Positions 10,607-33,924 of a DNA stretch of 46,807 bases are shown in pieces. Numbering within the stretch: the stretch's first letter is position 1; each line of letters begins with the position of its first letter. The position numbers and the translations under genes are program-made. The stretch covers positions 1 to 46,807 of the forward strand of contig JABCTC010000027.1 of the NCBI GenBank assembly GCA_018238545.1, read 5' to 3'. A model generated the notes under the pieces. That model did no database searches and was not told the DNA's origin. It was given only the letters and a program-made list of their open reading frames with translations. The DNA is from Candidatus Heimdallarchaeota archaeon. GTDB lineage: Archaea; Asgardarchaeota; Heimdallarchaeia; Heimdallarchaeales; Heimdallarchaeaceae.

Positions 10607-13600
10607 ATGTGGGGGAAGAAAAGAAAAATTACTTTCATAATTTCTGTATTTTTAATCTTGATTACCCTCTGCTTAATTATAAGTGAAAATGAACAAATGA
10701 AAATTGGTTTATCAACAGCTCAAGAAACTAATAGTCATATTGTTGAAATCGGAGATCGCTTTGTAATTTTAAATTGGACCATTCCAGAAAATTACTCGTT
10801 TAGTGGTTTTCGGATAGAAATTTATGACAGTTCTCTAAATCTTTCTCATACCTGGTCAATTATACAAATTAATCAAACTGCAACTCCAAATTATTTTGAT
10901 CAAGTAAACCTTGTAAACTACACTGATTCAAATGGTGATATCCTAACCTCACAGAAGGAAATTTCACTTAATTTTACCTATTTCATCGTTCCCACTAGCA
11001 CAAATTCAATCCAAGTTAAGGTAAATGGTTTGAAAACAATTAATCCCTACCAGATACAAATATACTCCACAAATTCAACACTTGTTCCAAATAATGAGCT
11101 TAGTATATTGCTTGTAGAAGAGGAGGAATCTTTCTGGATAACAGAGGAGTTTTCCACACTCCAAAGTATAGATGAAGCACTAAAATATTCCAGGACTGCA
11201 ACGACGATAACCATCCTAGCAATTATTCTGGTTTTCATTGTTATTTTTGTAATCATAGCAAAGATAGATGTTCCTTTCAATAGAGTTGCGTATGTTTTTA
11301 TCTTTCCAGCCCTTTTTGCTCTTGTTTTGCTAGAAGTATATCCGATGTTATATGGTATTGTGTTATCCTTTACATCCTACAACCTTAGAAGAGGAGAGAT
11401 TCCGCAATTTAATTGGCTGGAAAATTATATCCATATTTCAAATAATCCTCAATTACCAATTGCATTTACGACAACTTTGGTTTGGAGTACAATCATTATA
11501 TTTTTGAAGATAGTACTAGGCTTTGTATTAGCATATATCATTCATTACAAAGTTAAACGAAAGAAAGCGTGGTATCTCCTTCTCTACCTTCCTTGGGTTA
11601 TTCCTACCTATATCAAGATTTTATCTTGGAGAACTTTCATACAGGGGAGTGGAGGAGAATCATTATTCAACATGTTATTTGGCACAAATGTGAATCTCAT
11701 AAATCAGCCATATGTTGCCCTTCTTCTAGCTTGTTTTGTTGAAGTTTGGGATTCTATCCCCCTTATAACAACGTTGTTTCTTGGGGGTCTAAGTAGCATT
11801 CCTAAAGAACTGAATGATATTGCCAAAGTTGATCAGGTATCTGAAAGGGCAAGTATTAGAAAGATAATTATTCCCCTCATAAAGCCGATAATTTTACCAG
11901 TCATAATTCTGGAGATTATCAAAACTTTCGGAAGTTTCAATGTAGCATTTCTTTTTACGAGCGGCTATCCTTTATTGCCTTATGGTATGAATGAAGCGGG
12001 AATTATTGGAGCAACGGATCTTTTCAGTACTTTCACATTTTACATGTTTTACCAGAGGAGAGACGTAGGAATAGCTGCAGCTTATTCAACTATTATGAGT
12101 ATTCTCACCCTATTTTTCGTTTTGGTATGGATAAAAATGTCAAAAGGAACTGAAAGTTCTTTTCAACCATCAGATACAAAGAAGAAGAAAAACTACAAAG
12201 TTATCATTCCAATTTTTCTTGTAGCTCAAGCAATAGGATACATAGTTTCAGGTGTTATAGGATTTAGATACTTTGGATACCACTGGAATCCAGTTCTCAC
12301 CTACGTAATGGCAACATTCTTTGCTATAGCTGGTGGAATATTTATCTGGAAACCAAATCAAAGCTCAAAGGGACTTAAATTGTTACTAGCCATGGATTTG
12401 ATTTTCTCTTTAACTCAATTCTTCTTGTTCCAGATGTGGTTTGCTTTTAACTGGAACATTTTCATAATTGCAGTAGAATTTTTCATTATTGCTAGTATCC
12501 CACATAAGAAAATCAAGCCTCATTTTGCTCTTAAAAGATTACAGCAATTAGTTCAGGATTCGAGGAAACTAGTAACAAAGACCTTTCAATGGGTAGATAC
12601 AAAATTAACAGACATAAATTTTATCCATCTCATTTTGGTTGTTCAAGCTTCCATTTTTCTCATTTCTAACCTTACTCTAAGTTCAAGTTCTTGGTTAATG
12701 TGGAGCATATTTGGATTAAATATATTAATCATAATTTCTTCTATTTTCTCACAAATTATAACTAAATTTACTGTCCTTTTCCAACCCTTAGTTTGGATAG
12801 GTTTGGGTTTTGGATGGGGACCAATAGGTTGGAAAATCATCCATGCTATAGTTTCAATTGTATTTATAATCAATTATCTTCAAAAACTGCTAAACAAACC
12901 AAAGAAGAACGAATTCGAAAGAAAGATTTATTCTATTTTATCTTTACCTGTAAATAGTTCTGTGGTTTTGTTATCTATTTCCTTAATAGCATTTATTCCT
13001 ATATGGAACATATTTTGGATAGCATTCTCACCTTCAAACACTGTTGTACCAACAAGTATTTTCCCTAGCAATCCGACACTTAACAATTTTGAATTATTAT
13101 TTACACAAGAAAATATACTATTACACTTTGGGAATTCACTATTAGTTTCCTTGGGAGCTGCAACGTTCTGTATATTGCTAACAGTTTTAGCAGCTTATGC
13201 ATTTTCTAGATACACATTCAGAGTAAAGAAGCAGTTAATGGTGGGTGTTTTTGTTATGAAAATGTTTACAGGAATATTGACATTGATTCCTTTATATCTT
13301 ATCATGTTCAATTTAGGTTTGATTGATACATATATCGGTGTCATTTTAGCATATAGCACGCATACAATACCTCTAGGATTATGGTTAATTAAAGGATACA
13401 TGGATTCAATTCCAAAAGAGTTGGATGAATCAGCTCTATTAATGGGAAATTCACCGCTAAGGGTTTTAAGAAAAATTGTGTTTCCTTTGGCAGCACCAGC
13501 GATTGCAGTAGCTTTCTTGCTTAGTTTCCTTACAGCTTGGAATGGTTTTCTATTAGCATTTGTTCTGTTGCAATCACCCCTAAGGTATACATTACCAATA

Positions 13601-13765
13601 AAGTTGTATACCTTTTTAGGGTCTATTGAGACAAGTTCGCCTGAATGGGGCATGTTTGCTGCGGCTTCATTATTGGTGATGATACCAATGATAATTATGT
13701 TTATTTTTCTAAGAAATTACCTGCTTAAAGGTGCAGATGGTTCTATACGTGGAGGAGATGTATAA
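10607..13765 (+). CDS. Fused carbohydrate ABC permease (MalF-like + MalG-like) with extra extracellular and TM domains
   Basis: Two permease cores with EAA-type loops SIPKELNDIAKVDQ and SIPKELDESALLMG. Lies between the SBP and ATPase genes with 1-nt and 0-nt gaps. Confidence 0.88.
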   Translation: MWGKKRKITFIISVFLILITLCLIISENEQMKIGLSTAQETNSHIVEIGDRFVILNWTIPENYSFSGFRIEIYDSSLNLSHTWSIIQINQTATPNYFDQVNLVNYTDSNGDILTSQKEISLNFTYFIVPTSTNSIQVKVNGLKTINPYQIQIYSTNSTLVPNNELSILLVEEEESFWITEEFSTLQSIDEALKYSRTATTITILAIILVFIVIFVIIAKIDVPFNRVAYVFIFPALFALVLLEVYPMLYGIVLSFTSYNLRRGEIPQFNWLENYIHISNNPQLPIAFTTTLVWSTIIIFLKIVLGFVLAYIIHYKVKRKKAWYLLLYLPWVIPTYIKILSWRTFIQGSGGESLFNMLFGTNVNLINQPYVALLLACFVEVWDSIPLITTLFLGGLSSIPKELNDIAKVDQVSERASIRKIIIPLIKPIILPVIILEIIKTFGSFNVAFLFTSGYPLLPYGMNEAGIIGATDLFSTFTFYMFYQRRDVGIAAAYSTIMSILTLFFVLVWIKMSKGTESSFQPSDTKKKKNYKVIIPIFLVAQAIGYIVSGVIGFRYFGYHWNPVLTYVMATFFAIAGGIFIWKPNQSSKGLKLLLAMDLIFSLTQFFLFQMWFAFNWNIFIIAVEFFIIASIPHKKIKPHFALKRLQQLVQDSRKLVTKTFQWVDTKLTDINFIHLILVVQASIFLISNLTLSSSSWLMWSIFGLNILIIISSIFSQIITKFTVLFQPLVWIGLGFGWGPIGWKIIHAIVSIVFIINYLQKLLNKPKKNEFERKIYSILSLPVNSSVVLLSISLIAFIPIWNIFWIAFSPSNTVVPTSIFPSNPTLNNFELLFTQENILLHFGNSLLVSLGAATFCILLTVLAAYAFSRYTFRVKKQLMVGVFVMKMFTGILTLIPLYLIMFNLGLIDTYIGVILAYSTHTIPLGLWLIKGYMDSIPKELDESALLMGNSPLRVLRKIVFPLAAPAIAVAFLLSFLTAWNGFLLAFVLLQSPLRYTLPIKLYTFLGSIETSSPEWGMFAAASLLVMIPMIIMFIFLRNYLLKGADGSIRGGDV

Positions 13766-15050: not shown

Positions 15051-18000
15051 ATGATAAGTGATGAAATGAGAGATTTATTTGATCACATTAACGAAGGTGT
15101 TACTTTAGTCAAGGAAGGTAAAATAGTTTATGTTAACAAAAAATTAACAGAAATTCTAGGCTATACTTTGGAAGAATTAATGGAAGAGTCCATTTTTCTG
15201 TTTGCTTCTACAGAGAACCATGAGAACATAGAAGATAAGGTCGAAGAAAAGAAAATAAGCAGCACTCCTTTGAAACTCTTGGAATTCTGGGTCATTGGGA
15301 AAGATGGGAAAAGAAAGTATATTAGAAATCAATATCACGATATAGAAAAAGAGGGAGAAAGAGTAGGCCAGATAATATATACTCAAGATATTTCTGAAGA
15401 GAAACAAAAAGAGACATTAATTCTCGCTTCAGAATTTAAAAAATCGAGATTTCTAGACTTTCTTTCTGAACACGTTATATTCCACGATGTTAATCTAAAT
15501 ATATTATGGGCTAACAAAGCTGCAACAGACTCTTTAAACATCAGCACGAATAATATTGTAGGTAAAAATTGCTACAGATTATGGCACGGTAGAGAAACAC
15601 CGTGTGATATATGTCCTGTATTAGTTGCAAAAGAAACTGGAAAAGAAAGCAGTTCTGAGGTTACAACTCCCGATGGTAGAGTATGGCATATTAGAGGTTT
15701 TCCAGTATATGGTGATGAAGGTACATTAATTGGGATGGCAGAATTAACTAGAGAAATTACAGAGCGTAAAGAAGCTGAAACCGAATTAATGGAAAACGAA
15801 GAGAGATACAGACATATTTTCCATGGTGTTGTAGATGCAATTTTTATTCATGAGATTGATGATGATGGAAATTTCGGAAAGTTCATAGAAGTGAATGATT
15901 TAGCATGTCAGTGGACAGGTTACTCGCGGGAGGAATTGATGAATAAAACTTCAAGAGATATAAGTCGTAGAGATCCTTTAGAGATTGAGAAAAACATTTC
16001 TAAAGAGCTAATTTCTTCTGGAGAAGCATCATTTGAGATGTCTTTAATTTCGAAGAGTAATAAATTAATACCTGTAGAGATACACTCCACATTATTCAAT
16101 TTAAAGGGAGAAAAAGCTGTTTTATCTATTGCCAGAGACATTACTGAACGCAGGAAAGCAGAAGAGAAGTTAAAAGATAATGAAGAAAAATTCCGTCAGA
16201 TTTTTCACAAAACAAACGACGCCATATTTCTAGCAAAATTTGAAGAAGATGAGAACACAAGCCAATTCATAGAAGTAAACGATGTAGCTTGTGAGTGGCT
16301 TGGTTATACAAGAGATGAATTGCTTAACCTGAAATCAATTGACATAACAGCTAAAGTCTCTACATCTCAACATCTCGGAATTCTTCGTAATATTCTAAGA
16401 AAAGAGACTCATAGTTATGATTCTATTGTTCTAACCAAGGATGGAACAGAACGGCTAGCTGAAATGGAATCACATATTTTTTACTTAAAGGATGAAAAGT
16501 TAGTACTTACTTTTGCCAGAGACATAACGGATAGGAAAGAAGCTGAAGAAGAACTACAAGAAAGTGAAGAAAAATTCAGGCAAATATTCCATAATGCACA
16601 AGATGCAATGTTCATAAACAAAATTGAAAATGGTACCAAACTTGGTGCTTTTATTGAAATTAATAATACTGCTTGTCAGTGGATAGGCTATTCTAGAGGG
16701 GAATTATTAGGTTTAACTAGTTACGAAGAAGAAGATAAAACAATAGAAAATTTCTTTTCTTTCCATCTAGATGAGGAAATATTAAGTTCTGGGAAACAGA
16801 CATTTGAAACAGTTATTATTAGTAGAACTAAAAAACAGATTCCAGTTGAGGTAAGATCTCACTTGTTTGACCTTGCTGACGAACAAGTTATCTTATCCAT
16901 CGCAAGTGATATCACAGATAGGAAGAAGGCAGAAGAGATAATTAAAGAGAGCGAGGAAAAATACAGAACGCTAATTGAAACATCATCCAATGCAATCATT
17001 CTTCTTAATCTCGATGGAAAACTTCAGTATGTCAATAAACTATCTGCTACTATGTTTGGTTACAAAACCACAGAAGATATGCTGGGTTTAACACCCATAG
17101 ATTTCGTTTCCCGTAAGGATTATGAGATAGCATCAAATTCACTAAACGAAACAATAAAAATAGGTAGTGTTAGAAACGTAGTGTTTTATGCAATTAAAAA
17201 GGATGGAGCAAGTTTTCCAGTAGAATTTAGTGCTACATTGTTACTCGACAAGAATGATAAACCCAGATCAATTATGGGCATTATTGAAGACATTACAGAC
17301 AGAAAGAAAGCTGTAGATGCACTTAAAGAAAATGAAGAGAAATTCAGACAAACTTTTGACCGATCAAACGATGGTATTATTCTTCATACACTTAAGGGGA
17401 ATATCATTGATGTTAATTATAGGCTTAGAGAACTTGTGGGATATTCAAAATCAGAAATACTACTTCTAACTATTCATCAATTACATCCTGTAACTGAACA
17501 AGAAGATTCCAAAAAAGCATTTGAAATTATACAAAAAGAAGGCTATGTCAAATTTGAGATTAGTTTCAAGAGAAAAGATGGCTCAATATTTCCTGCAGAG
17601 GTTTCATCCAGTCTATTCGAAATTAGAGGAGAGAAAATTGTTCAAGGGGTCATCCGAGACATAACAGAGAGAAAGAATTCTGAAAGAGAGCTTAAGGAAA
17701 GCGAAGAGAAATTTAGACAGATATTCCATAACGCTAACGATTGTATCTTTCTTACTCCGGTTAATAGAAAACTTGGAACTACTACAGAATTTATAGAAAT
17801 CAATGAAATAGCTTGCAAATTATTAAATTATACAAAAGAAGAACTCCTCACTATGAAATCTGTTGATATTACTGCACCAGAAGAAAGAGAAACTAACGCA
17901 GAAATCATTAGAGAAATTATTGCTCAAGGTTCAGGTACTTTTGAGACCAGTTTGATTACTAAAGACGGTATCAGAATACCCACAGAGTTGAGTTCACATC

Positions 18001-18710
18001 TTTTCTTCTTTATGGATGAAGAAGTGATTTTGACTATTGGAAGAGATATTTCAGAGCGTAAAAAAGCTGAACAAGATATCCAAGAAAGTGAAGAAAGGTA
18101 TAGGAAACTTGTAGAAACTTCCCCTGATGGAATTATTCTTACTGATATTGGCAACAACATTTTAGTTGCTAATCTGCAAATTGCGGAGATGTACGGTATA
18201 TCTAACCCCGATGAATTGATTAGTATCAACTCATTAGATATGATTAAAGAAGAAGATAGAGAAAGAGCAGCTGCAAATTTCAAGAAAACCTTGAAAGATG
18301 GAAAATCTGCAACAATAGAACTAGAATTTTTGAAAAAAAATGGGGACAGTTATCCAGGAGAACTAAGAGCTACAACTATATCAGATAAAGAAAACATACC
18401 TTATGCAATTGTATGTATTATCTCTGACATAATAGAAAGAAAGGAAGCAGAAAAGATTCGAACCGAAGCTTTTACTCGAATAGAACAAAATATACAAGAT
18501 TTTGATGCACTGGTAGATAGGATAAGAAATCCATTAATGAGTATCATAGGTTTCGCTGAACTTGCAGATAGTTTTCACTCCACTGTGATCATTGAAGAAG
18601 CAGAAAAAATCGAGGTTATTACTAAGCAGATAGCTGAAAGTTGGCTAGAATCTGAAGAATTCAGGAAGATTCTTAGGAAACATCTTTTAAAGGAAGAGGA
18701 AAAGGAATAA
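15051..18710 (+). CDS. Nine-PAS/PAC sensor protein with degenerate C-terminal HisKA-like helix pair and no HATPase domain
   Basis: Repeated DITERKxAEEELxESEEKFRQIF linkers delimit 9 PAS domains. C-terminus is LVDRIRNPLMSIIGFAEL...SWLESEEFRKILRKH. Confidence 0.88.
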   Translation: MISDEMRDLFDHINEGVTLVKEGKIVYVNKKLTEILGYTLEELMEESIFLFASTENHENIEDKVEEKKISSTPLKLLEFWVIGKDGKRKYIRNQYHDIEKEGERVGQIIYTQDISEEKQKETLILASEFKKSRFLDFLSEHVIFHDVNLNILWANKAATDSLNISTNNIVGKNCYRLWHGRETPCDICPVLVAKETGKESSSEVTTPDGRVWHIRGFPVYGDEGTLIGMAELTREITERKEAETELMENEERYRHIFHGVVDAIFIHEIDDDGNFGKFIEVNDLACQWTGYSREELMNKTSRDISRRDPLEIEKNISKELISSGEASFEMSLISKSNKLIPVEIHSTLFNLKGEKAVLSIARDITERRKAEEKLKDNEEKFRQIFHKTNDAIFLAKFEEDENTSQFIEVNDVACEWLGYTRDELLNLKSIDITAKVSTSQHLGILRNILRKETHSYDSIVLTKDGTERLAEMESHIFYLKDEKLVLTFARDITDRKEAEEELQESEEKFRQIFHNAQDAMFINKIENGTKLGAFIEINNTACQWIGYSRGELLGLTSYEEEDKTIENFFSFHLDEEILSSGKQTFETVIISRTKKQIPVEVRSHLFDLADEQVILSIASDITDRKKAEEIIKESEEKYRTLIETSSNAIILLNLDGKLQYVNKLSATMFGYKTTEDMLGLTPIDFVSRKDYEIASNSLNETIKIGSVRNVVFYAIKKDGASFPVEFSATLLLDKNDKPRSIMGIIEDITDRKKAVDALKENEEKFRQTFDRSNDGIILHTLKGNIIDVNYRLRELVGYSKSEILLLTIHQLHPVTEQEDSKKAFEIIQKEGYVKFEISFKRKDGSIFPAEVSSSLFEIRGEKIVQGVIRDITERKNSERELKESEEKFRQIFHNANDCIFLTPVNRKLGTTTEFIEINEIACKLLNYTKEELLTMKSVDITAPEERETNAEIIREIIAQGSGTFETSLITKDGIRIPTELSSHLFFFMDEEVILTIGRDISERKKAEQDIQESEERYRKLVETSPDGIILTDIGNNILVANLQIAEMYGISNPDELISINSLDMIKEEDRERAAANFKKTLKDGKSATIELEFLKKNGDSYPGELRATTISDKENIPYAIVCIISDIIERKEAEKIRTEAFTRIEQNIQDFDALVDRIRNPLMSIIGFAELADSFHSTVIIEEAEKIEVITKQIAESWLESEEFRKILRKHLLKEEEKE

Positions 18711-25583: not shown

Positions 25584-25627
25584 GGTAAAAAATACCCTAT
25601 TTTACCTTTTATTTTTTTAAAAAAAAG
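25584..25627. terminator. Probable bidirectional terminator
   Basis: GGTAAAA/TTTTACC inverted repeat (25584-25606) followed by T7 and A8 runs, between convergent transcription units. Confidence 0.45.
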
Positions 25628-25642
25628 ATGAAAATAGATTAA

Positions 25643-28600
25643 CTATTTTCTAATGGGTGGTCTGCTTCTAAATTCATAATAGATTTTAGTAATTTCTTTG
25701 ACTAGATCTTCATTGAAAGAAGCGATTAAAACAGGTTCACCAGAGGCCGTAGTATGTCCTAAGAATCCTTCCTCAATACCATCTCTTGTACCCATATAAG
25801 CAGTTAATTGAGGATCATCTTTTACTATAACATTACCCATCCCTAATAATTTATCTAGGATCGCATTATCTGCTTCAGTATGTACTGTAGTATTGGTTAC
25901 TATTTCTAGTTTCCTTCCAAAAGTATCTAAGAATTCAGCATCTATCCAGCTCAAATTAGGACAGATTATAGTTGCGGAGGATTTTGTATTTCTTAGAGTT
26001 GACATCATCGTGGAAAAGGTTTGTTCTTTACCATGTACTAGCCAGATATCTTCTATGGGGGCAGGTTCAACACCTTTGCCCAAATTGAGAACACTTCTAA
26101 GTAATTTCATTGATTCACCTGTAGCTTCTAAAACAATATCAATCTTTGATGGGATTGATTTCAGAATGCCTGTAATATTCGAATCAACTTTATCTATTTC
26201 CTTCAGTGAACTTGAGATGAATTCTTCTTTGAATGTTTGCAGCTTCAATGAATATTCATCTTTGGTAGAAGTAGAGGCTTTTGAATTTTCTAGAGCTTTA
26301 TTCATCTTCTCAGCTATAACTCCATAGAATGTTTCAAAGATATCATCAACAGCTTGTTCAACTCCTTTAAGATCTTTATCTACAGTCTCATGAACTGAAG
26401 ATGAGGTGTCAAGTAACGAATCTTTTGTACTTTGGATATTTGTCACTAAAGCTGAAGAATTGGAATCTGAACTTGACACTAGTGAGTTGATTTGGTGACT
26501 AACATTCAGCTGGAAGTCATTACCCTCCTTCTCAAATGCGTCTTCAACAGATACTATACTTTTATCATATTCGCTTGAAATATTTGCATAAACTTTTTCC
26601 AAATCTTTCTTAGTTTCTTCATACAACTCGTCTAGAATTGCTTGTGCTTGAGAATGGTAATCATTTATTGCTGAGGTAAGATTTGATGCGAATATAGCGT
26701 TATCACTATCTAACCACTCAGGGTAAGATTCAGTAAGTTTGTTGAGTTCTGCTTTTGCTTCATTAATTGCATTATCTAACGAAGATGCTTTTTTAGGTGA
26801 AACACTTAAATCTGCTAACAAACCTTCTGAACTCTCCATAAACGCTTGTACTTCTTGATTAACAGAATCACGAATTTGCTCACCTACTACCTCTGTTTGT
26901 TGACTGTAACTTGCTGAGGCTTCATCTAGAGTAACAGACACATCTGTATCCAGAGCTTTCTTTGCTCCCTCAAATTCTGACTGGAGCATCTTCATGTTGC
27001 CATCCATTGAAGTAGCTACACTTTTTACAAGTGTTGAGTGGTCATCAATGTTAGTTTTAATTGTCTCTTGTAGTTTTTGCATTACTTCATCATTATTTAC
27101 TCGCATAGTGCTGAAAATTTCTTCTTTAGAGGAAAGTAATCCTTGTAAACCTTCTTCAATGTGTAGTTGCATTTTTGTTTTTTCTACTTCACCCTCTTCA
27201 TCACCTATAACTGACTCTCCTGCTTTTATCACTTCATCAAGATATTTGCCAGTTTTATTGATAATTGCTTGGAAAGAGTTGGTTGCATTATCTGTAATCA
27301 GCTTATTTGTTTTTTCTAATTCCTTGAAGGTAGTATTTAGCTTCTTACTTATTTCACTCTCTGAATCACTCATTGTTTGAAGAATTGTAGTTTTAGATGT
27401 GTTAATTTTCTCTTTCTCACCATCTAGAAGCTTCACTACATTTGAAACAAATGAATTAGAGTTCTTTGTCAATGTATCAATTTGTACTTGATATAGATCC
27501 TGAACCTTTTCTGGAGTGGTTATTTCATTAATAGTATTTGTTAAGCTACTTGTTGCTTCCTCAACCTTACTCTTCAAAGAGTTTATTGATTCATGCTCAT
27601 TACCAACAATGCTGCCAAGAGCCTGAGTGTTGGTATCTTGCAATTCAGTAAAACTTGTTTCATATGTGGTGAAAGTAGTATCGATTCTTTCCTTCATGCT
27701 ATCGTATGATTCTCTAAGCTGATTTGTAATCTCATCTTTAGCTTTCTCTATTTTTTGACTAATGTCCTCTACTTCTGAATCCGACAATTGTGAAAGGGCG
27801 TCTATACGGCTATTCATCTTGTTAAAAATATCAGTTGAAAGACTCTCCATTGAGCTAGTGAATGTTTTAATAACTTCAGCAATTTTACTTTCCGTATTAT
27901 ACTTCAAGTTATTAATATCAGCAATCATGGTTCCGATTAAATGAGCCATTCTGGGACCAGCTTCTTTTCCAAAAACTTTCTGTAATTGCTTTTGATCCAG
28001 GTCTTGGAAGGCTTCATTAATTTCAGTTAGTTTAGCAACAGAGGCTTTAAACTGATCATCGAGTTCTTGAACACTTTCAAGGCTTGATTGATAATTAATT
28101 TGAACTAAATTAGGTACCTCATCTCTAACATCTCTACCATTCTTAGCAAATTCTTCAGAAAATGATATAATTCTTGTCTTAATTTCCTCATTTTTAGTAT
28201 CCATGAAACTGTTCACAGTAGTTGTATTAGTATCAATATTCTCTTTGATATCTGACAAAGCAATGGTTTTAAGTTCGTTAAGATGGGTAAGATAGTTTTC
28301 TTTGAACTCAGTGTGAGTGGAAGTAAACTTCTTCTTGCTAGCGTTCATTTTTTTGGAGTAGCTGTCAATAGTTAAAGAGATGCTAGTAACATATTCTGAT
28401 GAAGCCAGCTCAAATGATGATACTGTATTGGATAAGAAGTTCAACATCGTTTCTTGGTTTGCCAAAACATCTTTCTCAAGCTTTTTGAGATAACCTTGCT
28501 CCTTTTTCTTTACAGAAGTTAAAGCAATATCGGTCTCTGTATGTATCTCTGCTGCTACATCAGTCAGTTTTGTGTTGCTTTGTTGAATGGATTCCTTAAT

Positions 28601-30067
28601 AGAAATCGATAAGAATGTATTCAACTCTTGGATTTTCTTGTTCATGCTTTCTTTTTGACTTGACGATAAATTAACAAAGTCAGAGAGATTTTTCTGCAAA
28701 TCTTCATTTATGGATAATTTCAAAGTATCAAAATCATCCATAATTTCTCCAAAGAAGCTTTTAATCTGGTCACTTACATTCTCAATGGATTTTGATAGAG
28801 TGTCCTCAAATAGGTTTAAACCGTCATTTATCCCACCTTGAAGAAGTGTTAATAGATTGTCACTATTTTTCTCGAAATCATTCAAATAATCATTTAAGTT
28901 CCCAACAAGCTTATTTTTCATCTCAGCAGTTTTAGTTTCAGTTTGAGATATTAAGTTTCCAAGCTTTTCGACTGATAGAGTCTTTATTTGGCTCAAAAGA
29001 TCTTGGAATTGTGTTTCATTTTGCTGCAAAACATTAATTGCTGAATCCTTTGCTTTTTCAATAGCATTTTTGATTCTGTTAGAGGTTAAATCTTCTAACT
29101 TTTTTAACTCTTCATTTAATGAAGATAGAATATCTTTTACTTTTGTTTGATATTCGTCTAAATTAGTGTGGTAATCACTAACAATTTTGTTTATTGTTTC
29201 TATTGATTTTGTTGTTGATTCTTTGGTTATTAATTTAGAATCACTGATGAGTTTCTTGTTAACATCATTTGTATTATCAACAATTAGAGATTTTTTCTCA
29301 CCTGCTTTGGAGTTAAACTGTTCAAGAAGTGTGCTTATGTTAGTTTTTATTCCTTCAACTTTTTCTAATATTCCATCTAGTTGCCCTTTTGCACGAGCAT
29401 TATGTTCGGTTTCTAGATTGGTATACGTCTCTTGTATCTTTGTTTTAAAACTCTCATGGTGTTCCCCAACTCTATGGATTGTTGTATCAAAAGTTGATGA
29501 GAGATTCTCTTGGATTCTTTGTATAGCTTTTTTCAGGTTGTCACTGTGTGTAGTGGTAATTATTCCTGTGTCTGTTTTAATCTTTGAAATTGCTTCTTGT
29601 ACATCGTTCTTTCCTGTTGTTACTACTTCAGAAACAGAAGCAAGAAATTGCTTTGAAATATCACTTAGCTCTTGACTATGACTGTCAGTCGATTCTGTCA
29701 GATGATTATGAAATGTAGATAATTGACCTCGAAAGGTTTTCATAGTATTATTCCAATCATTCTTCACATCATCACTTAAAGCTTTAAGTTCATTTTCAAG
29801 CCTCATGGATACATCTTCAGTTAGCTTAATTTGTGGAGGCAAGGGGATAAAATATGAGGTTCCTTCATTATTTTTTGCTATTATTTCTTTTATATAGCCT
29901 TTAGTAACTAAACTACCCAAAGCTGCAGAAATAACATCAACAGTTTGTTTATAGTAGGATTGGATTTGTCCAATGGTTCTAGTTCCAAATTGAACGACTG
30001 TTGAATAAACCTGAATTTCATCTTGCGATAAACCTATTTTTTCTAATGTTGATTCCATTTTCATCAC
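25643..30067 (-). CDS. Giant TrmB-family protein: N-terminal TrmB wHTH, ~1250-aa hendecad helical rod, C-terminal TrmB effector (PLD-like fold) domain
   Basis: LEKIGLSQDEIQVY..GTRTIGQI..ALGSLVTKGYI..YFIPLPP matches the TrmB HTH pattern. EDIWLVHGKEQ..TKSSATIICP..LEIVT..TRDGIEEGFLG..NEDLVKEI matches the TrmB C-domain pattern. The middle is almost all helix-forming residues. Confidence 0.8.
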   Translation of the reverse strand: MMKMESTLEKIGLSQDEIQVYSTVVQFGTRTIGQIQSYYKQTVDVISAALGSLVTKGYIKEIIAKNNEGTSYFIPLPPQIKLTEDVSMRLENELKALSDDVKNDWNNTMKTFRGQLSTFHNHLTESTDSHSQELSDISKQFLASVSEVVTTGKNDVQEAISKIKTDTGIITTTHSDNLKKAIQRIQENLSSTFDTTIHRVGEHHESFKTKIQETYTNLETEHNARAKGQLDGILEKVEGIKTNISTLLEQFNSKAGEKKSLIVDNTNDVNKKLISDSKLITKESTTKSIETINKIVSDYHTNLDEYQTKVKDILSSLNEELKKLEDLTSNRIKNAIEKAKDSAINVLQQNETQFQDLLSQIKTLSVEKLGNLISQTETKTAEMKNKLVGNLNDYLNDFEKNSDNLLTLLQGGINDGLNLFEDTLSKSIENVSDQIKSFFGEIMDDFDTLKLSINEDLQKNLSDFVNLSSSQKESMNKKIQELNTFLSISIKESIQQSNTKLTDVAAEIHTETDIALTSVKKKEQGYLKKLEKDVLANQETMLNFLSNTVSSFELASSEYVTSISLTIDSYSKKMNASKKKFTSTHTEFKENYLTHLNELKTIALSDIKENIDTNTTTVNSFMDTKNEEIKTRIISFSEEFAKNGRDVRDEVPNLVQINYQSSLESVQELDDQFKASVAKLTEINEAFQDLDQKQLQKVFGKEAGPRMAHLIGTMIADINNLKYNTESKIAEVIKTFTSSMESLSTDIFNKMNSRIDALSQLSDSEVEDISQKIEKAKDEITNQLRESYDSMKERIDTTFTTYETSFTELQDTNTQALGSIVGNEHESINSLKSKVEEATSSLTNTINEITTPEKVQDLYQVQIDTLTKNSNSFVSNVVKLLDGEKEKINTSKTTILQTMSDSESEISKKLNTTFKELEKTNKLITDNATNSFQAIINKTGKYLDEVIKAGESVIGDEEGEVEKTKMQLHIEEGLQGLLSSKEEIFSTMRVNNDEVMQKLQETIKTNIDDHSTLVKSVATSMDGNMKMLQSEFEGAKKALDTDVSVTLDEASASYSQQTEVVGEQIRDSVNQEVQAFMESSEGLLADLSVSPKKASSLDNAINEAKAELNKLTESYPEWLDSDNAIFASNLTSAINDYHSQAQAILDELYEETKKDLEKVYANISSEYDKSIVSVEDAFEKEGNDFQLNVSHQINSLVSSSDSNSSALVTNIQSTKDSLLDTSSSVHETVDKDLKGVEQAVDDIFETFYGVIAEKMNKALENSKASTSTKDEYSLKLQTFKEEFISSSLKEIDKVDSNITGILKSIPSKIDIVLEATGESMKLLRSVLNLGKGVEPAPIEDIWLVHGKEQTFSTMMSTLRNTKSSATIICPNLSWIDAEFLDTFGRKLEIVTNTTVHTEADNAILDKLLGMGNVIVKDDPQLTAYMGTRDGIEEGFLGHTTASGEPVLIASFNEDLVKEITKIYYEFRSRPPIRK

Positions 30068-30070
30068 ACT

Positions 30071-31519
30071 TTAAAGTTCGTTTTTTATAGATTCTATACT
30101 TCTTTCTAATCTTTCAATTCTATTAATCAGATCTCTTTTTCTTTTTTCGGCATCTTCTGCGCTCTTAACATGTTCTTTAGCTTCTACGTCTAGATCTGTC
30201 ATTATAGATTGCTGAGTTTCAGCAATTTGACTTTTAATATTGGAAGATTGGGATGCTATATTTGCTCGATTTTCTTTTTCAACAACCTCAAGTTGAGTTG
30301 TGATTTGAGAACTTGTTTGACTGATTGAAGCCTTTAATCTCTCGACTTCTTCTTCCAATAATGCTATTTTTTGGAGAAATTCTGATTCAGTTTTTTCTTT
30401 AGTTTTATCAGATTCCTCTATGACTATTGTTTGAATCTCGGATAACTTTTGTTTAATATCATTCTTTTCAGTAGAAATAATAGTCTTGGTTTCTTCTTTC
30501 ATTTCATCAGATTGTTTGGAAAATGATACTAACTCGTCATCTGCGTTCTTGTTGAAATTTTCTTGAAAGTCTTTAAGTTCGTTTCCATGAGATTCTATTT
30601 GCTGTGTTACTAATTCCTCATAAAGATTGATTATGGATGCTTTGGATTCATTGAAGTTAGAAAGGGCAACTTCATTAACATTGAACATGCCTTGCTCATA
30701 TTCTGCTAGAACCTCTTGAATCTTTGCAATTTCATCAATAAGATATTTATCCATTGTTCCTGAAATTCCAGATAGCTCTGTCTGAATCCTCTTAACAGCG
30801 TTATCTACTAGTTGAGCTAGTTCACTTTTTATCCTATTGAAACTCTCAAAAATTGATTCCATGTTCTCTGTAAGTTTATCACCGTATTCAGAGCGAAGAT
30901 GCTCTATAGACTCTTTCATAATATTTTCAGTTATATTAATATTAGATTCTAGCTGTTTCTTCATTTCCTCAGCATTTTTCTCAAACGTTGTTATACTATT
31001 TTGCCTAATATCTGAAACATCTTCCTTAACAGTTGTAATTGCCTTTCTAAAGGAGTTTACTTGACTATTTGATAATCTGTTAATATCTTGTTCATGAGAA
31101 CTTAAAATTGATGAAATTTTCTCTTCAAAGCTAGCTGAATATTTATCATACTCAGTTTTCCCTTTTTCCAAAGTAGAAAGAACGGTATCTTGTAATGAAA
31201 CTAGCATTTTCTTGGTCTCATCTAATTTACCACATACTGTTCTTGATTGGGTTTCAGTCCATTCATTTAGAAAGGTTCGATCTTTTTCCGAGCCAGCTCT
31301 AACACTATTCTCGAGACTAATCTTATTATTATCAATTAAGGTTCGAATATTTTCATTCAAAGATATGAACTTGTTTTGTATCAATGTTGCCATTGTTTGA
31401 TAATATTTTTGCAATTCTAGCTGGTTTTCCAATGCTTCTTTGAAATTGGTTGCTTGACCTTCTAAATTTTCTATTTCTCTTCTAATTTTATCTAAATCTT
31501 TAGATACTTTTTCAGACAT
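30071..31519 (-). CDS. Proline-free all-helical coiled-coil protein (~482 aa)
   Basis: No Pro, E/K/S/Q/N-rich, 4-4-3 hydrophobic spacing in the core. GGTGA SD overlaps the upstream stop codon and points to ATG 31519. Confidence 0.8.
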   Translation of the reverse strand: MSEKVSKDLDKIRREIENLEGQATNFKEALENQLELQKYYQTMATLIQNKFISLNENIRTLIDNNKISLENSVRAGSEKDRTFLNEWTETQSRTVCGKLDETKKMLVSLQDTVLSTLEKGKTEYDKYSASFEEKISSILSSHEQDINRLSNSQVNSFRKAITTVKEDVSDIRQNSITTFEKNAEEMKKQLESNINITENIMKESIEHLRSEYGDKLTENMESIFESFNRIKSELAQLVDNAVKRIQTELSGISGTMDKYLIDEIAKIQEVLAEYEQGMFNVNEVALSNFNESKASIINLYEELVTQQIESHGNELKDFQENFNKNADDELVSFSKQSDEMKEETKTIISTEKNDIKQKLSEIQTIVIEESDKTKEKTESEFLQKIALLEEEVERLKASISQTSSQITTQLEVVEKENRANIASQSSNIKSQIAETQQSIMTDLDVEAKEHVKSAEDAEKRKRDLINRIERLERSIESIKNEL

Positions 31520-31528
31520 GTTTTTCAC

Positions 31529-33292
31529 CTAAAATTCTAATTCTTTTTCAATATTCTCCAAAGAAATTTCCTTTATTTCTTCCTTTTTTGGTTCTAATGT
31601 TGGTTCCACAATTAGTTCTTCTTTCTCAAACATCATTGTTTTGAAATAATTGCGATGGATACTTTCAGGATTGAATAAATCAGCTGCTTTCTTACGTATC
31701 CTTTCAAAACTCTCATTATCACCCATACTTCTATTGCAATCTAAGCTCCTCTTGAAATATCCTCTTACAGCATATTCATTCTTCTCAATTGGAAGACTCA
31801 TTGCCATTTTTTCAAATTGGTCAGAAGCTCTTGAATAAGACCTTTTTGCTTTCAATTCTTCTTCAACTGAGTCATAATAATTCGCAGACTTCACATAGAG
31901 TTTTGCAGCAAAATAGTAGTTTTTTTCTTCAAATTCTCTTGCAATTGATTCACAAACTCCACCAGCTTGCTCCAGCTCATTTATTTGCTCAAATTGATGA
32001 GCATTAATGATTGCAAAATCGTATGCTCTTTGATACATTTCCTTTTCAATACATATCTTAGTAATTTTATTCAACTTCGCTGCAATAGCAAAATCTGCTA
32101 ATCTATCCCTTATCTTAAGAGTAAGGTTTTCAATGATTTCTATAACATTATCAGATGGAGCAATGTGATTTTCAAGATCGCTTAAAATCGAATCTAATCG
32201 TACCATTAATGTTGGTAAAGGACCAAATAAGGTTAACCTAAATTTCATAGCAGTCAATAATGAATCCTGAACTAATCTAGCGTGTTGTGATCCTAACCAT
32301 AAAATTCCTTTTTCTTCTAAACTCTTAAGTGTGCCCAGTGACACATAAGCAGTTAGCTGCTCGATGAGAAAAACATTTTCATTATAAGAGGCCATTTCTA
32401 TAAAAGCTGCTTCTTCATCATCTGTTAACTCAAAATAAGCTCGTATATTCCTCTCAACGAAATCTTCAATTTGTAAATCAGAAGATATGAAAGCTACACC
32501 TAAATTCAAATCGAAAAAAGATCGGTGGCTATTAGTAATTAATTCTAATATACCCTTATTTATCAACATTGGATCCTTTCGTCTAAGATATATTTCTGCT
32601 TCTGAAGCAGTTAAAGGCTCTATTTTTACAATGTTTGCACCATTAGTCAAGTTCTTCTCGTAATCAAAATCATAGAGATATTTTTCATTGAATGTAGCAA
32701 CAATGATGATATTGTATTTTCGTTCATTAACACCCTTTACAATTCTCGAGAATATCGGATAGAACTCCTGTAAATCCAATGTCTTAAACAGTTGTAGATT
32801 ATCAAAGAAGAAGTAAAGAAACGTGTTTGTTTCCTGTAATTTTACATTTACTTTGTCAAGACTATCGAAGAATAAGTCAACATAGTGATCTGTGTAGGAT
32901 TTTTCGGAAGGAATTTTCAGTGTTTGATTTAATTGAGGGAGATCATCACCTAGTTTCTTTTTCCCTACTTTTTCCAATAATGAACGCCAATCAGGTGATA
33001 ATTCATCTATCTTATTCTTCCATATTTTGAAAAAACTTAGGAGTTCATCCTCTTCAGGAATCAGATTTACAACATGAACTAGGTCACTTCTTCCAGAAAT
33101 TGATGTGGATAGTTTAGATAATAATGAACTTTTACCTGTTCCTTCATCTCCTATAATCAAAAATGAATGAATATTATCTTTCTTTTGTTTGATTTTACCA
33201 ATCTGCTCTGTGAAATTTTTAATTATTTCTCTTGAACCATAAAAGTCATCAGGCTGGCAAGGTTGTAAAAATTCGCTTTTTTCACTTGTCAT
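31529..33292 (-). CDS. STAND-like (archaeal ATPase/AAA_16-type) P-loop NTPase with wHTH and C-terminal TPR/SNAP-like repeats
   Basis: FYGSREII, Walker A GDEGTGKSS, Walker B LYFFFDNLQ, KIEPLTASEA, wHTH LKSLEEKGIL, TPR-like AAKLYVKSANYY..KAKRSYSRAS. Confidence 0.8.
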   Translation of the reverse strand: MTSEKSEFLQPCQPDDFYGSREIIKNFTEQIGKIKQKKDNIHSFLIIGDEGTGKSSLLSKLSTSISGRSDLVHVVNLIPEEDELLSFFKIWKNKIDELSPDWRSLLEKVGKKKLGDDLPQLNQTLKIPSEKSYTDHYVDLFFDSLDKVNVKLQETNTFLYFFFDNLQLFKTLDLQEFYPIFSRIVKGVNERKYNIIIVATFNEKYLYDFDYEKNLTNGANIVKIEPLTASEAEIYLRRKDPMLINKGILELITNSHRSFFDLNLGVAFISSDLQIEDFVERNIRAYFELTDDEEAAFIEMASYNENVFLIEQLTAYVSLGTLKSLEEKGILWLGSQHARLVQDSLLTAMKFRLTLFGPLPTLMVRLDSILSDLENHIAPSDNVIEIIENLTLKIRDRLADFAIAAKLNKITKICIEKEMYQRAYDFAIINAHQFEQINELEQAGGVCESIAREFEEKNYYFAAKLYVKSANYYDSVEEELKAKRSYSRASDQFEKMAMSLPIEKNEYAVRGYFKRSLDCNRSMGDNESFERIRKKAADLFNPESIHRNYFKTMMFEKEELIVEPTLEPKKEEIKEISLENIEKELEF

Positions 33293-33324
33293 TATTATCC
33301 TACCACTTCACTCAATTTCATTAA

Positions 33325-33367
33325 TGTAATTTTTCACTTATAAAATCTGTGTAAGTGTAAAAATACA
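33325..33367. promoter_or_regulatory. Imperfect 16-bp inverted repeat overlapping the TATA box of the NTPase/coiled-coil operon
   Basis: TGTAATTTTTCACTTA-N11-TAAGTGTAAAAATACA. Minus-strand TTTATAA at ~33338-33344. Confidence 0.5.
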
Positions 33368-33489
33368 GTTATCATATATTTTGCTTTAGTTAGGTGACAA
33401 CTCTACTGTTTATCAAATTTAGAAACATATAAAAAGATCTAGCGGGTTCATGTATATAATCAATAACAGAGGTGTAAAGATGACAATAG

Positions 33490-33924
33490 GTGAACGTTTT
33501 GTTAAAGCCAGCAATAATTTCCGAATTACAGCTGGAAAGAATCGAAAATACAGAAGAAGGGATCATCTTTGCGCAGAAGAAGATATTAGAGCTTGAAAAT
33601 GACTTGCTCTTAATGGATGAGCTTTTGAACAAAAGTTTGTTTCTTTTTATTGACATAATGAAAGACAAACAACAATTAATCTTTGCTGAAGCCATAAAAC
33701 AGTTAGACAAGAGATCTTTTTCCTTGAATAAATTAGCTGAGATTTTATCGCATAAATTAGATTTCACATTTTCAATGATTAAGTGGAACCTGACAAAATT
33801 CAGAGATTACGGATTGTTTGAATCTAATGGTCAAAGAGGAAATACAAAATCGACCTTGCTTCTAACAGAACTTGGTAGAATGCTTTATTCCACTTTTGCG
33901 AAAATGAAAACAAGAAAACTGTAA
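33490..33924 (+). CDS. Small protein with N-terminal coiled coil and C-terminal winged HTH
   Basis: SLNKLAEILSHKL..SMIKWNLTKFRDYGLFE..G..LLLTELGRML wHTH pattern. Divergent from the NTPase operon. Confidence 0.7.
   Translation: MNVLLKPAIISELQLERIENTEEGIIFAQKKILELENDLLLMDELLNKSLFLFIDIMKDKQQLIFAEAIKQLDKRSFSLNKLAEILSHKLDFTFSMIKWNLTKFRDYGLFESNGQRGNTKSTLLLTELGRMLYSTFAKMKTRKL

Follow-up and report, generated by a model that had tools for sequence, protein, structure and literature searches.

The window analysed here is a 46,807-nt stretch (contig JABCTC010000027.1) of Candidatus Heimdallarchaeota archaeon, known from a metagenome-assembled genome (MAG; 3.6 Mb, 33% G+C), and all coordinates refer to it. 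It harbors three consecutive genes whose products, P0001, P0002 and P0003, are encoded side by side in several lineages of Asgard archaea. P0003 is a TrmBL2-type protein in which a helix of ∼1220 residues with 11-residue (hendecad) periodicity replaces the joining dimerisation helix, and this rod most likely folds back on itself as two arms of matched length. P0002 consists almost entirely of a second hendecad helix, and P0001 is, on its predicted structure, a STAND NTPase with a tetratricopeptide repeat (TPR) arm. It is tentatively proposed that the three proteins form a fixed-length tether or scaffold, with the TrmBL2-like head of P0003 as the anchor and the ATPase as the switch. The parts belong to known fold families, and the assembly has no described counterpart; full-text literature searches revealed no published description of the operon or of a rod-bearing TrmB protein.

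The rod proteins P0003 and P0002

The amino-terminus of P0003 carries an extended winged helix-turn-helix (wHTH) of the TrmB type (Pfam TrmB, PF01978, 27.0 bits against a cut-off of 25.6). A profile built from 15 amino-termini of the P0003 family matched TrmB (3qph) at 3.1e-11 and TrmBL2 (5bpd) at 4e-9. The carboxy-terminal domain was modeled with an alignment of 13 orthologs at a predicted local distance difference test score (pLDDT) of 83, and Foldseek placed seven TrmBL2 chains first (5bpd/5bpi/5box/5bqt; E 6e-9 to 2e-7), followed by TrmB (2f5t and 3qph) and then by PLD-fold proteins (Nuc, Zucchini). Residues E1339, R1428, D1429 and E1432 of this domain are invariant, and no HKD catalytic motif was found in it. 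At the sequence level the link was weak: PF11495 matched 2 of the 13 orthologs at 0.008, hhalign against four canonical Asgard TrmB-like proteins gave a probability of 41% (E 3e-4), single-sequence and profile searches of the domain against PDB sequences returned nothing meaningful, and the best ESM Atlas score was 0.81, below the useful range, with PLDc_2 and Regulator_TrmB as weak leads. The domain order in TrmB and TrmBL2 is wHTH, dimerisation helix and carboxy-terminal domain (PMC4877046). P0003 shows the same two end domains in the same order, and its carboxy-terminal domain is without the sugar-binding subdomain, as in TrmBL2. However, the joining helix of TrmBL2/TrmB spans ∼30 residues, whereas that of P0003 spans ∼1220 residues in two mirror-matched arms.

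Analysis of the hydrophobicity spectra of the rods showed peaks at a period of 3.66–3.67 residues (11/3), with a power of 8–16 against a shuffle maximum of ∼1.5, and no peak at 3.5 was present in the rod proteins. The autocorrelation maxima fell at lags 11, 22, 33, 44, 55 and 66. The original prediction, made from the sequence and its open reading frames (ORFs), had counted ∼1700 aa of 11-residue-periodic helix, and the measured lengths, ∼1220 aa in P0003 and ∼420 aa in P0002, come close to this figure. The core is formed by positions a, e and h and partly by d and i, with LIVMF at 27%, Ala at 0–8% at each repeat position and the rest made up of S/T/N/Q/E/K. Judged by this pattern, the stripe has the geometry of a coiled-coil core and not that of a class-A lipid-binding helix. 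The hendecad phase of P0003 is constant from residue ∼78 to ∼650, is broken between 650 and 712, and resumes up to ∼1300, with Gly-rich phase breaks in the carboxy-terminal arm (C-arm) at ∼826, ∼940 and ∼1060. The motif at the tip, VFGKE in P0003, reads hFGKK in orthologs and LFGKKD in sister families.

Two sets of length data bear on the topology of the rod. Aligned with P0003, an ortholog from the same genus (1256 aa, 55% identity) shows exactly two gaps, at residues 444–549 (106 aa) and 825–928 (104 aa), which mirror each other about residue ∼686; counted from the apex they lie at 103–208 and 119–222, and counted from the arm starts at 365–470 and 119–222. Mirror-image gaps are what antiparallel pairing of the arms is expected to leave. 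Arm lengths were also measured between the conserved anchors P78, P652, F699 and I1305. Across nine length classes the amino-terminal arm (N-arm) ranged over 422–755 aa and the C-arm over 478–778 aa, with r = 0.994 (permutation p = 2e-5), the C-arm always being 17–56 aa longer, and at least six separate length changes were matched in both arms. The arms measure exactly 574/604 in five orthologs from two other families, which share 17–18% overall identity with P0003, and 574/606 in P0003 itself. The ∼30 extra residues of the C-arm are consistent with its three Gly-rich register breaks. Owing to the mirrored deletions and the covarying arm lengths, the fold-back topology of P0003 is strongly inferred, and the rod is most likely an antiparallel hairpin of ∼85 nm that places both TrmBL2 domains at the same end. 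The giant TrmB-headed rod of the original prediction is therefore present, but most likely as a hairpin of two length-matched arms instead of a single extended rod of 1250 aa.

The probable hairpin of P0003, which would join both termini as a head through an antiparallel coiled coil with an apex, and its arms of matched length are reminiscent of SMC, Rad50 and MukB. Unlike these proteins, P0003 has no ABC head, its repeat is hendecad and not heptad, its apex is a short motif in place of a hinge domain or zinc hook, and the ATPase of the operon is a distinct protein of the STAND type. P0003 gave no match to SMC_N or ABC, its termini are of the TrmB type, and an SMC-like ATPase was rejected on the absence of the ABC head. 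Two further likenesses concern the rods alone. P0003 matched the PADLOC model ZorA3 at 1.4e-21 over positions 231–506 of 692. NCBIfam ZorA also matched the rods below its cut-off, and the apolipoprotein A1/A4/E family (Pfam Apolipoprotein, PF01442) did so at 86.5 bits against a cut-off of 90. These matches cover helical parts only and are read as a likeness of repeat type, which probably reflects periodicity and composition. Zorya was rejected, as only the ZorA tail matches and the MotA/ExbB membrane part and a transmembrane segment are absent; no MotA/ExbB domain or ZorB partner was detected among the window ORFs scanned against Pfam. An apolipoprotein-type lipid binder was likewise rejected on the sub-cut-off score, the lack of proline punctuation (residues 79–651) and the narrow core stripe.

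P0002 is one unbroken, proline-free hendecad helix from residue ∼23 to ∼440, corresponding to about 62 nm, with a conserved core at ∼190–300 that includes the invariant E278. P0002 and the eight orthologs of it examined (425–770 aa) each keep a single unbroken register with 0–2 prolines. Alignment of P0002 with residues 264–572 of P0003 by hhalign gave a probability of 98.4% at 8% identity. Homology of the two was not taken as proven on these values; they share the repeat type and possibly a common origin. None of the three proteins contains a transmembrane segment (maximum Kyte–Doolittle 19-residue mean ≤ 1.15), as had been anticipated.

The ATPase P0001

Pfam assigned P0001 to AAA_16 at 1.6e-8, with ATPase_2 below threshold. 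The AlphaFold model, built on an alignment of 18 sequences, reached a pLDDT of 87.5 and consists of a nucleotide-binding domain with winged helix (residues ∼1–357), a TPR/SNAP-like arm (∼357–556) and a disordered acidic tail of ∼30 residues. The top Foldseek match was 6mfv, a STAND protein with a TPR sensor (E 2e-8), aligned end to end, followed by Avs3/Avs4, SAMD9, NLRs, Apaf-1, Orc1/Cdc6 and the archaeal ATPases 2fna and 2qen. VIA-align of residues 11–357 ranked MalT first (Z 15.8), and NLRP9, NOD2 and Orc1/Cdc6 aligned as well. The model thus supports the proposal of a STAND-like NTPase with a TPR surface, its best PDB matches being 6mfv, MalT, NLRs and Orc1/Cdc6. In the Walker A motif (GxxGxGKS pattern), G51 and G53 are invariant in 18 orthologs; in Walker B (hhhhD pattern), D164 is invariant and is followed by N, D or E.

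P0001 shares its P-loop domain, helical and winged-helix modules and carboxy-terminal TPR arm with the PH0952-type protein 6mfv (404–608 positions aligned), MalT (8bob), 2fna and 2qen. In contrast to known STAND-TPR proteins, P0001 has no effector or DNA-binding output, an arm that is SNAP-like in some orthologs, and a narrow family (41 clusters) that always lies beside long hendecad proteins. No effector or output domain was identified in P0001, because the nucleotide-binding domain begins at residue ∼17 and only the acidic tail trails the arm. The features of an Avs-type antiviral STAND, namely a fused effector, a PADLOC Avs match and a variable defense-island location, were absent.

The arm is the best-conserved part of P0001 besides the P-loop. 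The alpha/gamma-SNAP proteins (Sec17) are adaptors that lie along SNARE helical bundles and recruit NSF. P0001 resembles them in having neighbors that encode long helical-bundle proteins, and perhaps in a twisted TPR-like helical-repeat sheet; unlike SNAP, its arm is fused to a STAND module, uses no AAA+ unfoldase and gives structural scores within the generic helical-repeat range. For residues 357–556, VIA-align returned the LGN TPR (Z 13.2) and gamma-SNAP 2ifu (Z 12.3) among designed repeat proteins; 2ifu aligned over 179 residues at a root-mean-square deviation of 5.2, with LGN TPR and designed repeats scoring equal or higher. The predicted SNAP likeness was upheld in part. Six of 18 orthologs matched the SNAP family (Pfam PF14938) at E ≤ 1, one of them (L037:10464–12332) with 33.9 bits against a cut-off of 25 and another with 20.5 bits, whereas P0001 itself gave no SNAP match at E ≤ 1 and the profile reached Sec17/alpha-SNAP only at E 0.45. 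As a sequence relationship, the SNAP likeness of the arm holds at the family level; at the fold level it is inseparable from generic TPR. A predicted complex of the arm (residues 340–587) with full-length P0002, computed with alignments, had a score of 0.01 and a mark of 0.32, values that give no verdict either way.

Residues ∼558–587 of P0001 (31529–31620) form a disordered acidic linker and a terminal helix, IEKELEF, which reads IEKELDF in the same-genus ortholog. Among eight aligned ATPases, the linker and helix occur only in these two, and the helix may be a short docking motif. Another ATPase ortholog (L015:10339–12027) carries GSGRTS, in which Arg replaces the Walker A lysine, a change that hints at altered nucleotide handling in that genus.

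Gene arrangement, conservation and neighboring genes

The ATPase was found in 39 of the 40 nearest genomes. All 23 genomes of the genus and all 29 further genomes of the family carry it, each with one strong full-length match. Identity to P0001 falls with distance, from 61–94% in the genus to 40% in the family and 20–25% in the order. All four families of the order, and other Asgard classes as well, preserve the arrangement ATPase–helix–giant; the locus variants include middle genes of ∼770 aa, a two-gene form, and a giant located 10–18 kb off. In 52 Asgard genomes from 13 families, the ATPase and the carboxy-terminal domain of the giant share a contig at a distance of no more than 18 kb and mostly of less than 8 kb. 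Among the genomes listed, none had the two far apart on one contig, the remaining cases being split by contig ends. A lack of synteny in other genomes was among the conditions named as refuting the original prediction; the genes are syntenic across 13–14 Asgard families, so that the prediction is not refuted on this count. In a search of 1.84 billion representative proteins, the ATPase profile retrieved 41 clusters at E ≤ 1e-30 and, after these, generic archaeal ATPases of ∼380 aa; in two distant family members that were sampled from NCBI MAGs, long helical proteins again follow the ATPase. Scanning of genome contigs with P0001 itself gave close relatives only. As far as the genome-by-genome searches within the phylum reach, the module is lineage-specific.

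The profile of the P0003 carboxy-terminal domain, on the other hand, matched 381 of 399 Asgard genomes, in several copies each; among the matches listed, most lay inside long ORFs of 460–2092 aa. Rod-bearing TrmB proteins are therefore phylum-wide, and the ATPase-linked giants are one branch of them. The same genome encodes two shorter paralogs of P0003, of 747 aa (L042:6492–8735) and 766 aa (L043:5351–7651), with the same build of TrmB wHTH, hendecad rod and carboxy-terminal domain. The 747-aa paralog has one strong match per genome, with frames of 747–755 aa in most genomes of the genus and 766 aa in two, and its sister-family relatives have frames of 909–925 aa where complete. It adjoins a gene (L042:9104–12145) for a 1013-aa Dna2-like nuclease-helicase (PDDEXK_1, Dna2, AAA_11/AAA_12) with a carboxy-terminal zf-RING_2 match (5e-5), and this gene also adjoins an RFC-like AAA+ gene. 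The DNA-replication context was not used functionally, as the neighborhood is kept in the genus and not in a sister family.

In the window, the operon region is filled by three co-oriented minus-strand ORFs separated by 3–9 nt (Table 1). The stop codon of P0001 overlaps a Shine–Dalgarno-like GGTG placed 6 nt ahead of the P0002 ATG, and P0003 starts 3–9 nt past the P0002 stop. Upstream, the TATA box TTTTATAA lies ∼49 nt before the P0001 ATG, between the arms of an inverted repeat (CACTTA and TAAGTG, 33352–57 and 33335–40). The ∼38-nt promoter block is identical in five species whose ATPases are 81–94% identical to P0001, and the rest of the spacer has diverged. The co-oriented genes, their tight spacing, the Shine–Dalgarno sequence over a stop codon and the TATA box under an inverted repeat were thus all present as described originally. 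The T8 run behind P0003 resembles the terminators of archaea. No match came from scanning the window for Rfam families and tRNAs.

Table 1. Features of the three-gene locus and the divergent gene, in window coordinates.
Feature	Position	Strand	Remarks
Divergent small gene	33490..33924	+	144 aa; own conserved TATA box and Shine–Dalgarno
Promoter block	33321..33358	-	TATA box at 33338–33345 between inverted-repeat arms
P0001	31529..33292	-	587 aa; predicted STAND NTPase, effector-less
Walker A GDEGTGKS, residues 48–55	33128..33151	-	
Walker B FFFDNL, residues 160–165	32798..32815	-	
TPR/SNAP-like helical-repeat arm, residues 357–556	31625..32224	-	
P0001 stop TAG (31529–31531) with GGTG for P0002 (31526–29)	31526..31531	-	overlapping
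P0002	30071..31519	-	∼482 aa from the likelier ATG at 31519; ORF to 31528, 485 aa from GTG
P0003	25643..30064	-	∼1473 aa; ORF to 30067, 1474 aa; likely ATG 30064 or 30058
TrmB-type extended wHTH, residues 5–78	29834..30055	-	
N-arm, residues 79–651	28115..29833	-	single hendecad register, proline-free, ∼85 nm as helix
Apex/hinge, residues 652–712	27932..28114	-	conserved P652; tip motif at 698–702
C-arm, residues 713–1300	26168..27931	-	hendecad helix, 4–5 segments
TrmBL2/TrmB-type PLD-like domain, residues 1301–1474	25646..26167	-	assigned by model and Foldseek
T8 run	25619..25626	-	17–24 nt past the P0003 stop

The divergent gene had been described as encoding a wHTH protein. The gene is present, and in the ESM Atlas its product resembles wHTH proteins of the ArnR1 type (score 0.91; 26 of 30 matches in one set), whereas Pfam gave no match for the 144-aa protein. 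An ArnR1-like wHTH is therefore possible, as a lead only. The gene was observed within the genus only; in another genus of the same family (L035), only 197 nt separate the ATPase from an M24 peptidase gene upstream of it, so that the small gene would not fit. A conserved GGTG with an ATG at 33480 opens a frame that ends after 38 codons, and the 144-aa ORF runs from a GTG at 33490 in another frame. This two-frame arrangement recurs in two related genomes, the alternatives being a different true start or a frameshift. In two sister families, the ATPase gene is immediately preceded, in the same orientation, by a gene for a membrane protein of ∼740 aa (L013:12316–14556, L014:12645–14864, L015:12272–14500), in which Rce1-like CAAX-protease and HEAT_2 matches were found for L014 and L015 only; this gene does not occupy the position in the window's family. 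The neighbors of the operon are housekeeping genes (GAPDH, M24 peptidases). Elsewhere in the window, the protein encoded at 15051–18710 (1219 aa) contains nine PAS_9 stretches (Pfam 4.5e-98) and gave no match to a kinase domain. The product of 10607–13765 is an ABC permease of 1052 aa whose single chain contains two BPD_transp_1 stretches; its gene is flanked by those for a solute-binding protein and an ABC ATPase.

Possible roles of the three proteins

In the arrangement that we tentatively favor, the three genes would represent one vertically inherited cell-structural module of Asgard archaea. The arms of P0003 would pair antiparallel into a rod of fixed length (∼85 nm), so that the wHTH and the PLD-like domain would sit together as the head at one end, and the conserved hydrophobic-basic tip (hFGKK) would lie at the opposite end. 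P0002 would probably bundle with itself or along the P0003 rod. P0001 may act, by way of its conserved TPR/SNAP-like arm, as a nucleotide-dependent switch of rod assembly or as the hub of the rods; as it lacks an effector domain, nucleotide-dependent oligomerisation and whatever the arm binds would be its only plausible outputs. Such a long-range tether or spacer would most likely keep the partner bound by the head, be it the nucleoid or something else, at a fixed separation from a structure bound at the tip. DNA binding, the contact between rod and ATPase, the partner of the tip and the cellular role are only inferred. TrmBL2 of Thermococcus is a filament-forming nucleoid protein (PMC4877046, PMC11840125) that forms stiff DNA filaments and stalls Smc-ScpAB, acting as an SMC roadblock (PMC11840125).

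Several observations weigh against this arrangement. The R, Y and R of the recognition helix in TrmB (NRVYDTISSLKLRG) and TrmBL2 (PRTYDVLRSLEKKG) correspond to V45, S47 and G51 in P0003, and in HMMER alignments these positions are mostly Glu in the ortholog consensus. From what is generally known of wHTH proteins, these residues would be the ones that contact DNA. The head of P0003 is also about neutral, with a net charge of 0 for the wHTH and −6 for the carboxy-terminal domain; the head charge of canonical Asgard TrmB-like proteins is likewise about neutral. Besides being encoded together with a second rod protein and a STAND ATPase, P0003 differs from TrmBL2/TrmB in having lost the R/Y/R positions. 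This makes DNA binding doubtful, and it amounts to a guess from homology whose canonical mode has evidence against it. A giant with a DNA-binding TrmB head had been predicted originally; the TrmB wHTH is there, together with a TrmBL2-like carboxy-terminal domain, but the DNA-binding premise is weakened. In P0001, Asn comes after the Walker B aspartate, and in one ortholog Arg takes the place of the Walker A lysine, so that ATP turnover may be slow or absent. The arm covariation would be fitted equally well by an intermolecular antiparallel dimer of ∼170 nm, and a simple uniform two-stranded coil is impossible, as the C-arm has at least three register breaks and the N-arm none. One family has the two-gene form in which P0002 is absent, and the ATPase profile matches 95 of 399 Asgard genomes (E ≤ 1e-5, weak partial matches included), a patchy distribution across the phylum.

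The lost R/Y/R positions would also suit a protein-only or membrane-associated scaffold that makes no DNA contact. In such a scaffold the TrmB-type head would serve dimerisation or protein binding, the rods would assemble into a cytoskeleton-like lattice or cover lipid in the manner of apolipoprotein/perilipin 11-mers, and the STAND protein would regulate assembly. This is an unlikely but serious alternative. The apolipoprotein score just short of its cut-off, the hydrophobic-basic motif at the apex and the co-oriented gene for an Rce1-like intramembrane protease with HEAT repeats directly upstream in two sister families speak for it. It is opposed by the narrow stripe without proline punctuation, the absence of any transmembrane segment, the mirror-matched arm lengths, which indicate that the arms pair with each other, and the retention of both TrmBL2 domains with an invariant core and a basic wing. 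Another alternative is a transcription-regulatory unit, in which P0003 would be a TrmB-family regulator with the long arm as sensor or ruler, the STAND protein a MalT-like integrator and the divergent wHTH a co-regulator. Both end domains of P0003 do belong to the TrmB family, VIA-align ranks MalT first for the ATPase, and the inverted repeat over the TATA box is conserved. Yet the R/Y/R positions are lost, the sugar-binding subdomain is absent and the carboxy-terminal domain is TrmBL2-sized, a 1220-aa rod of conserved length is not known from regulators, and the divergent gene was observed within the genus only, which leaves this explanation improbable.

A STAND-type defense or conflict system, with the TPR arm sensing an invader protein and the rods acting as effector or as relay like the ZorA tail, has a similarly slim chance. 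The combination of STAND and TPR is the architecture of Avs, Avs3/Avs4 are among the Foldseek matches, and the rods match the PADLOC ZorA tail models. However, the ZorA match is confined to the tail, no nuclease, protease, TIR or other effector domain was found, and PADLOC returned no system match for the ATPase (best 2.9e-4, mads_8). The single strong match in every genome of the genus and family, divergence that tracks taxonomy, a rod length fixed to the residue across families and housekeeping neighbors instead of a defense island are also at odds with defense; this conservation pattern fits better with a vertically inherited cellular function. That the three genes are mere neighbors without joint work is very improbable. 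It could draw on the one family in which the giant lies 10–18 kb from the ATPase/helix pair, the ATPase being on the strand opposite to the giant's match in both loci examined (L032, L034). Set against this are the linkage in 52 genomes, the stop codon overlapping the Shine–Dalgarno sequence of the next gene, and the same order with tight spacing (0–12 nt here) across classes that share only ∼20% identity.

A bolder form of the tether reading is conceivable, though quite unlikely. The proteins would constitute ATP-switched rods of fixed length (∼85 nm here, longer or shorter in orthologs), a prokaryotic nucleoskeleton or chromosome tether with the head on chromatin and the tip on the membrane or on each other, and the SNAP-like STAND protein would grip and release helical bundles as SNAP/NSF do SNAREs. 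Among known prokaryotes, Asgard archaea are the closest relatives of eukaryotes, and the organization of their chromatin and cell interior is relevant to how the nucleus arose. Should the head of P0003 bind DNA, the rod would be the first long-range DNA tether of such a type; otherwise it would represent a new cytoskeletal element of archaea, derived from a transcription-factor scaffold.

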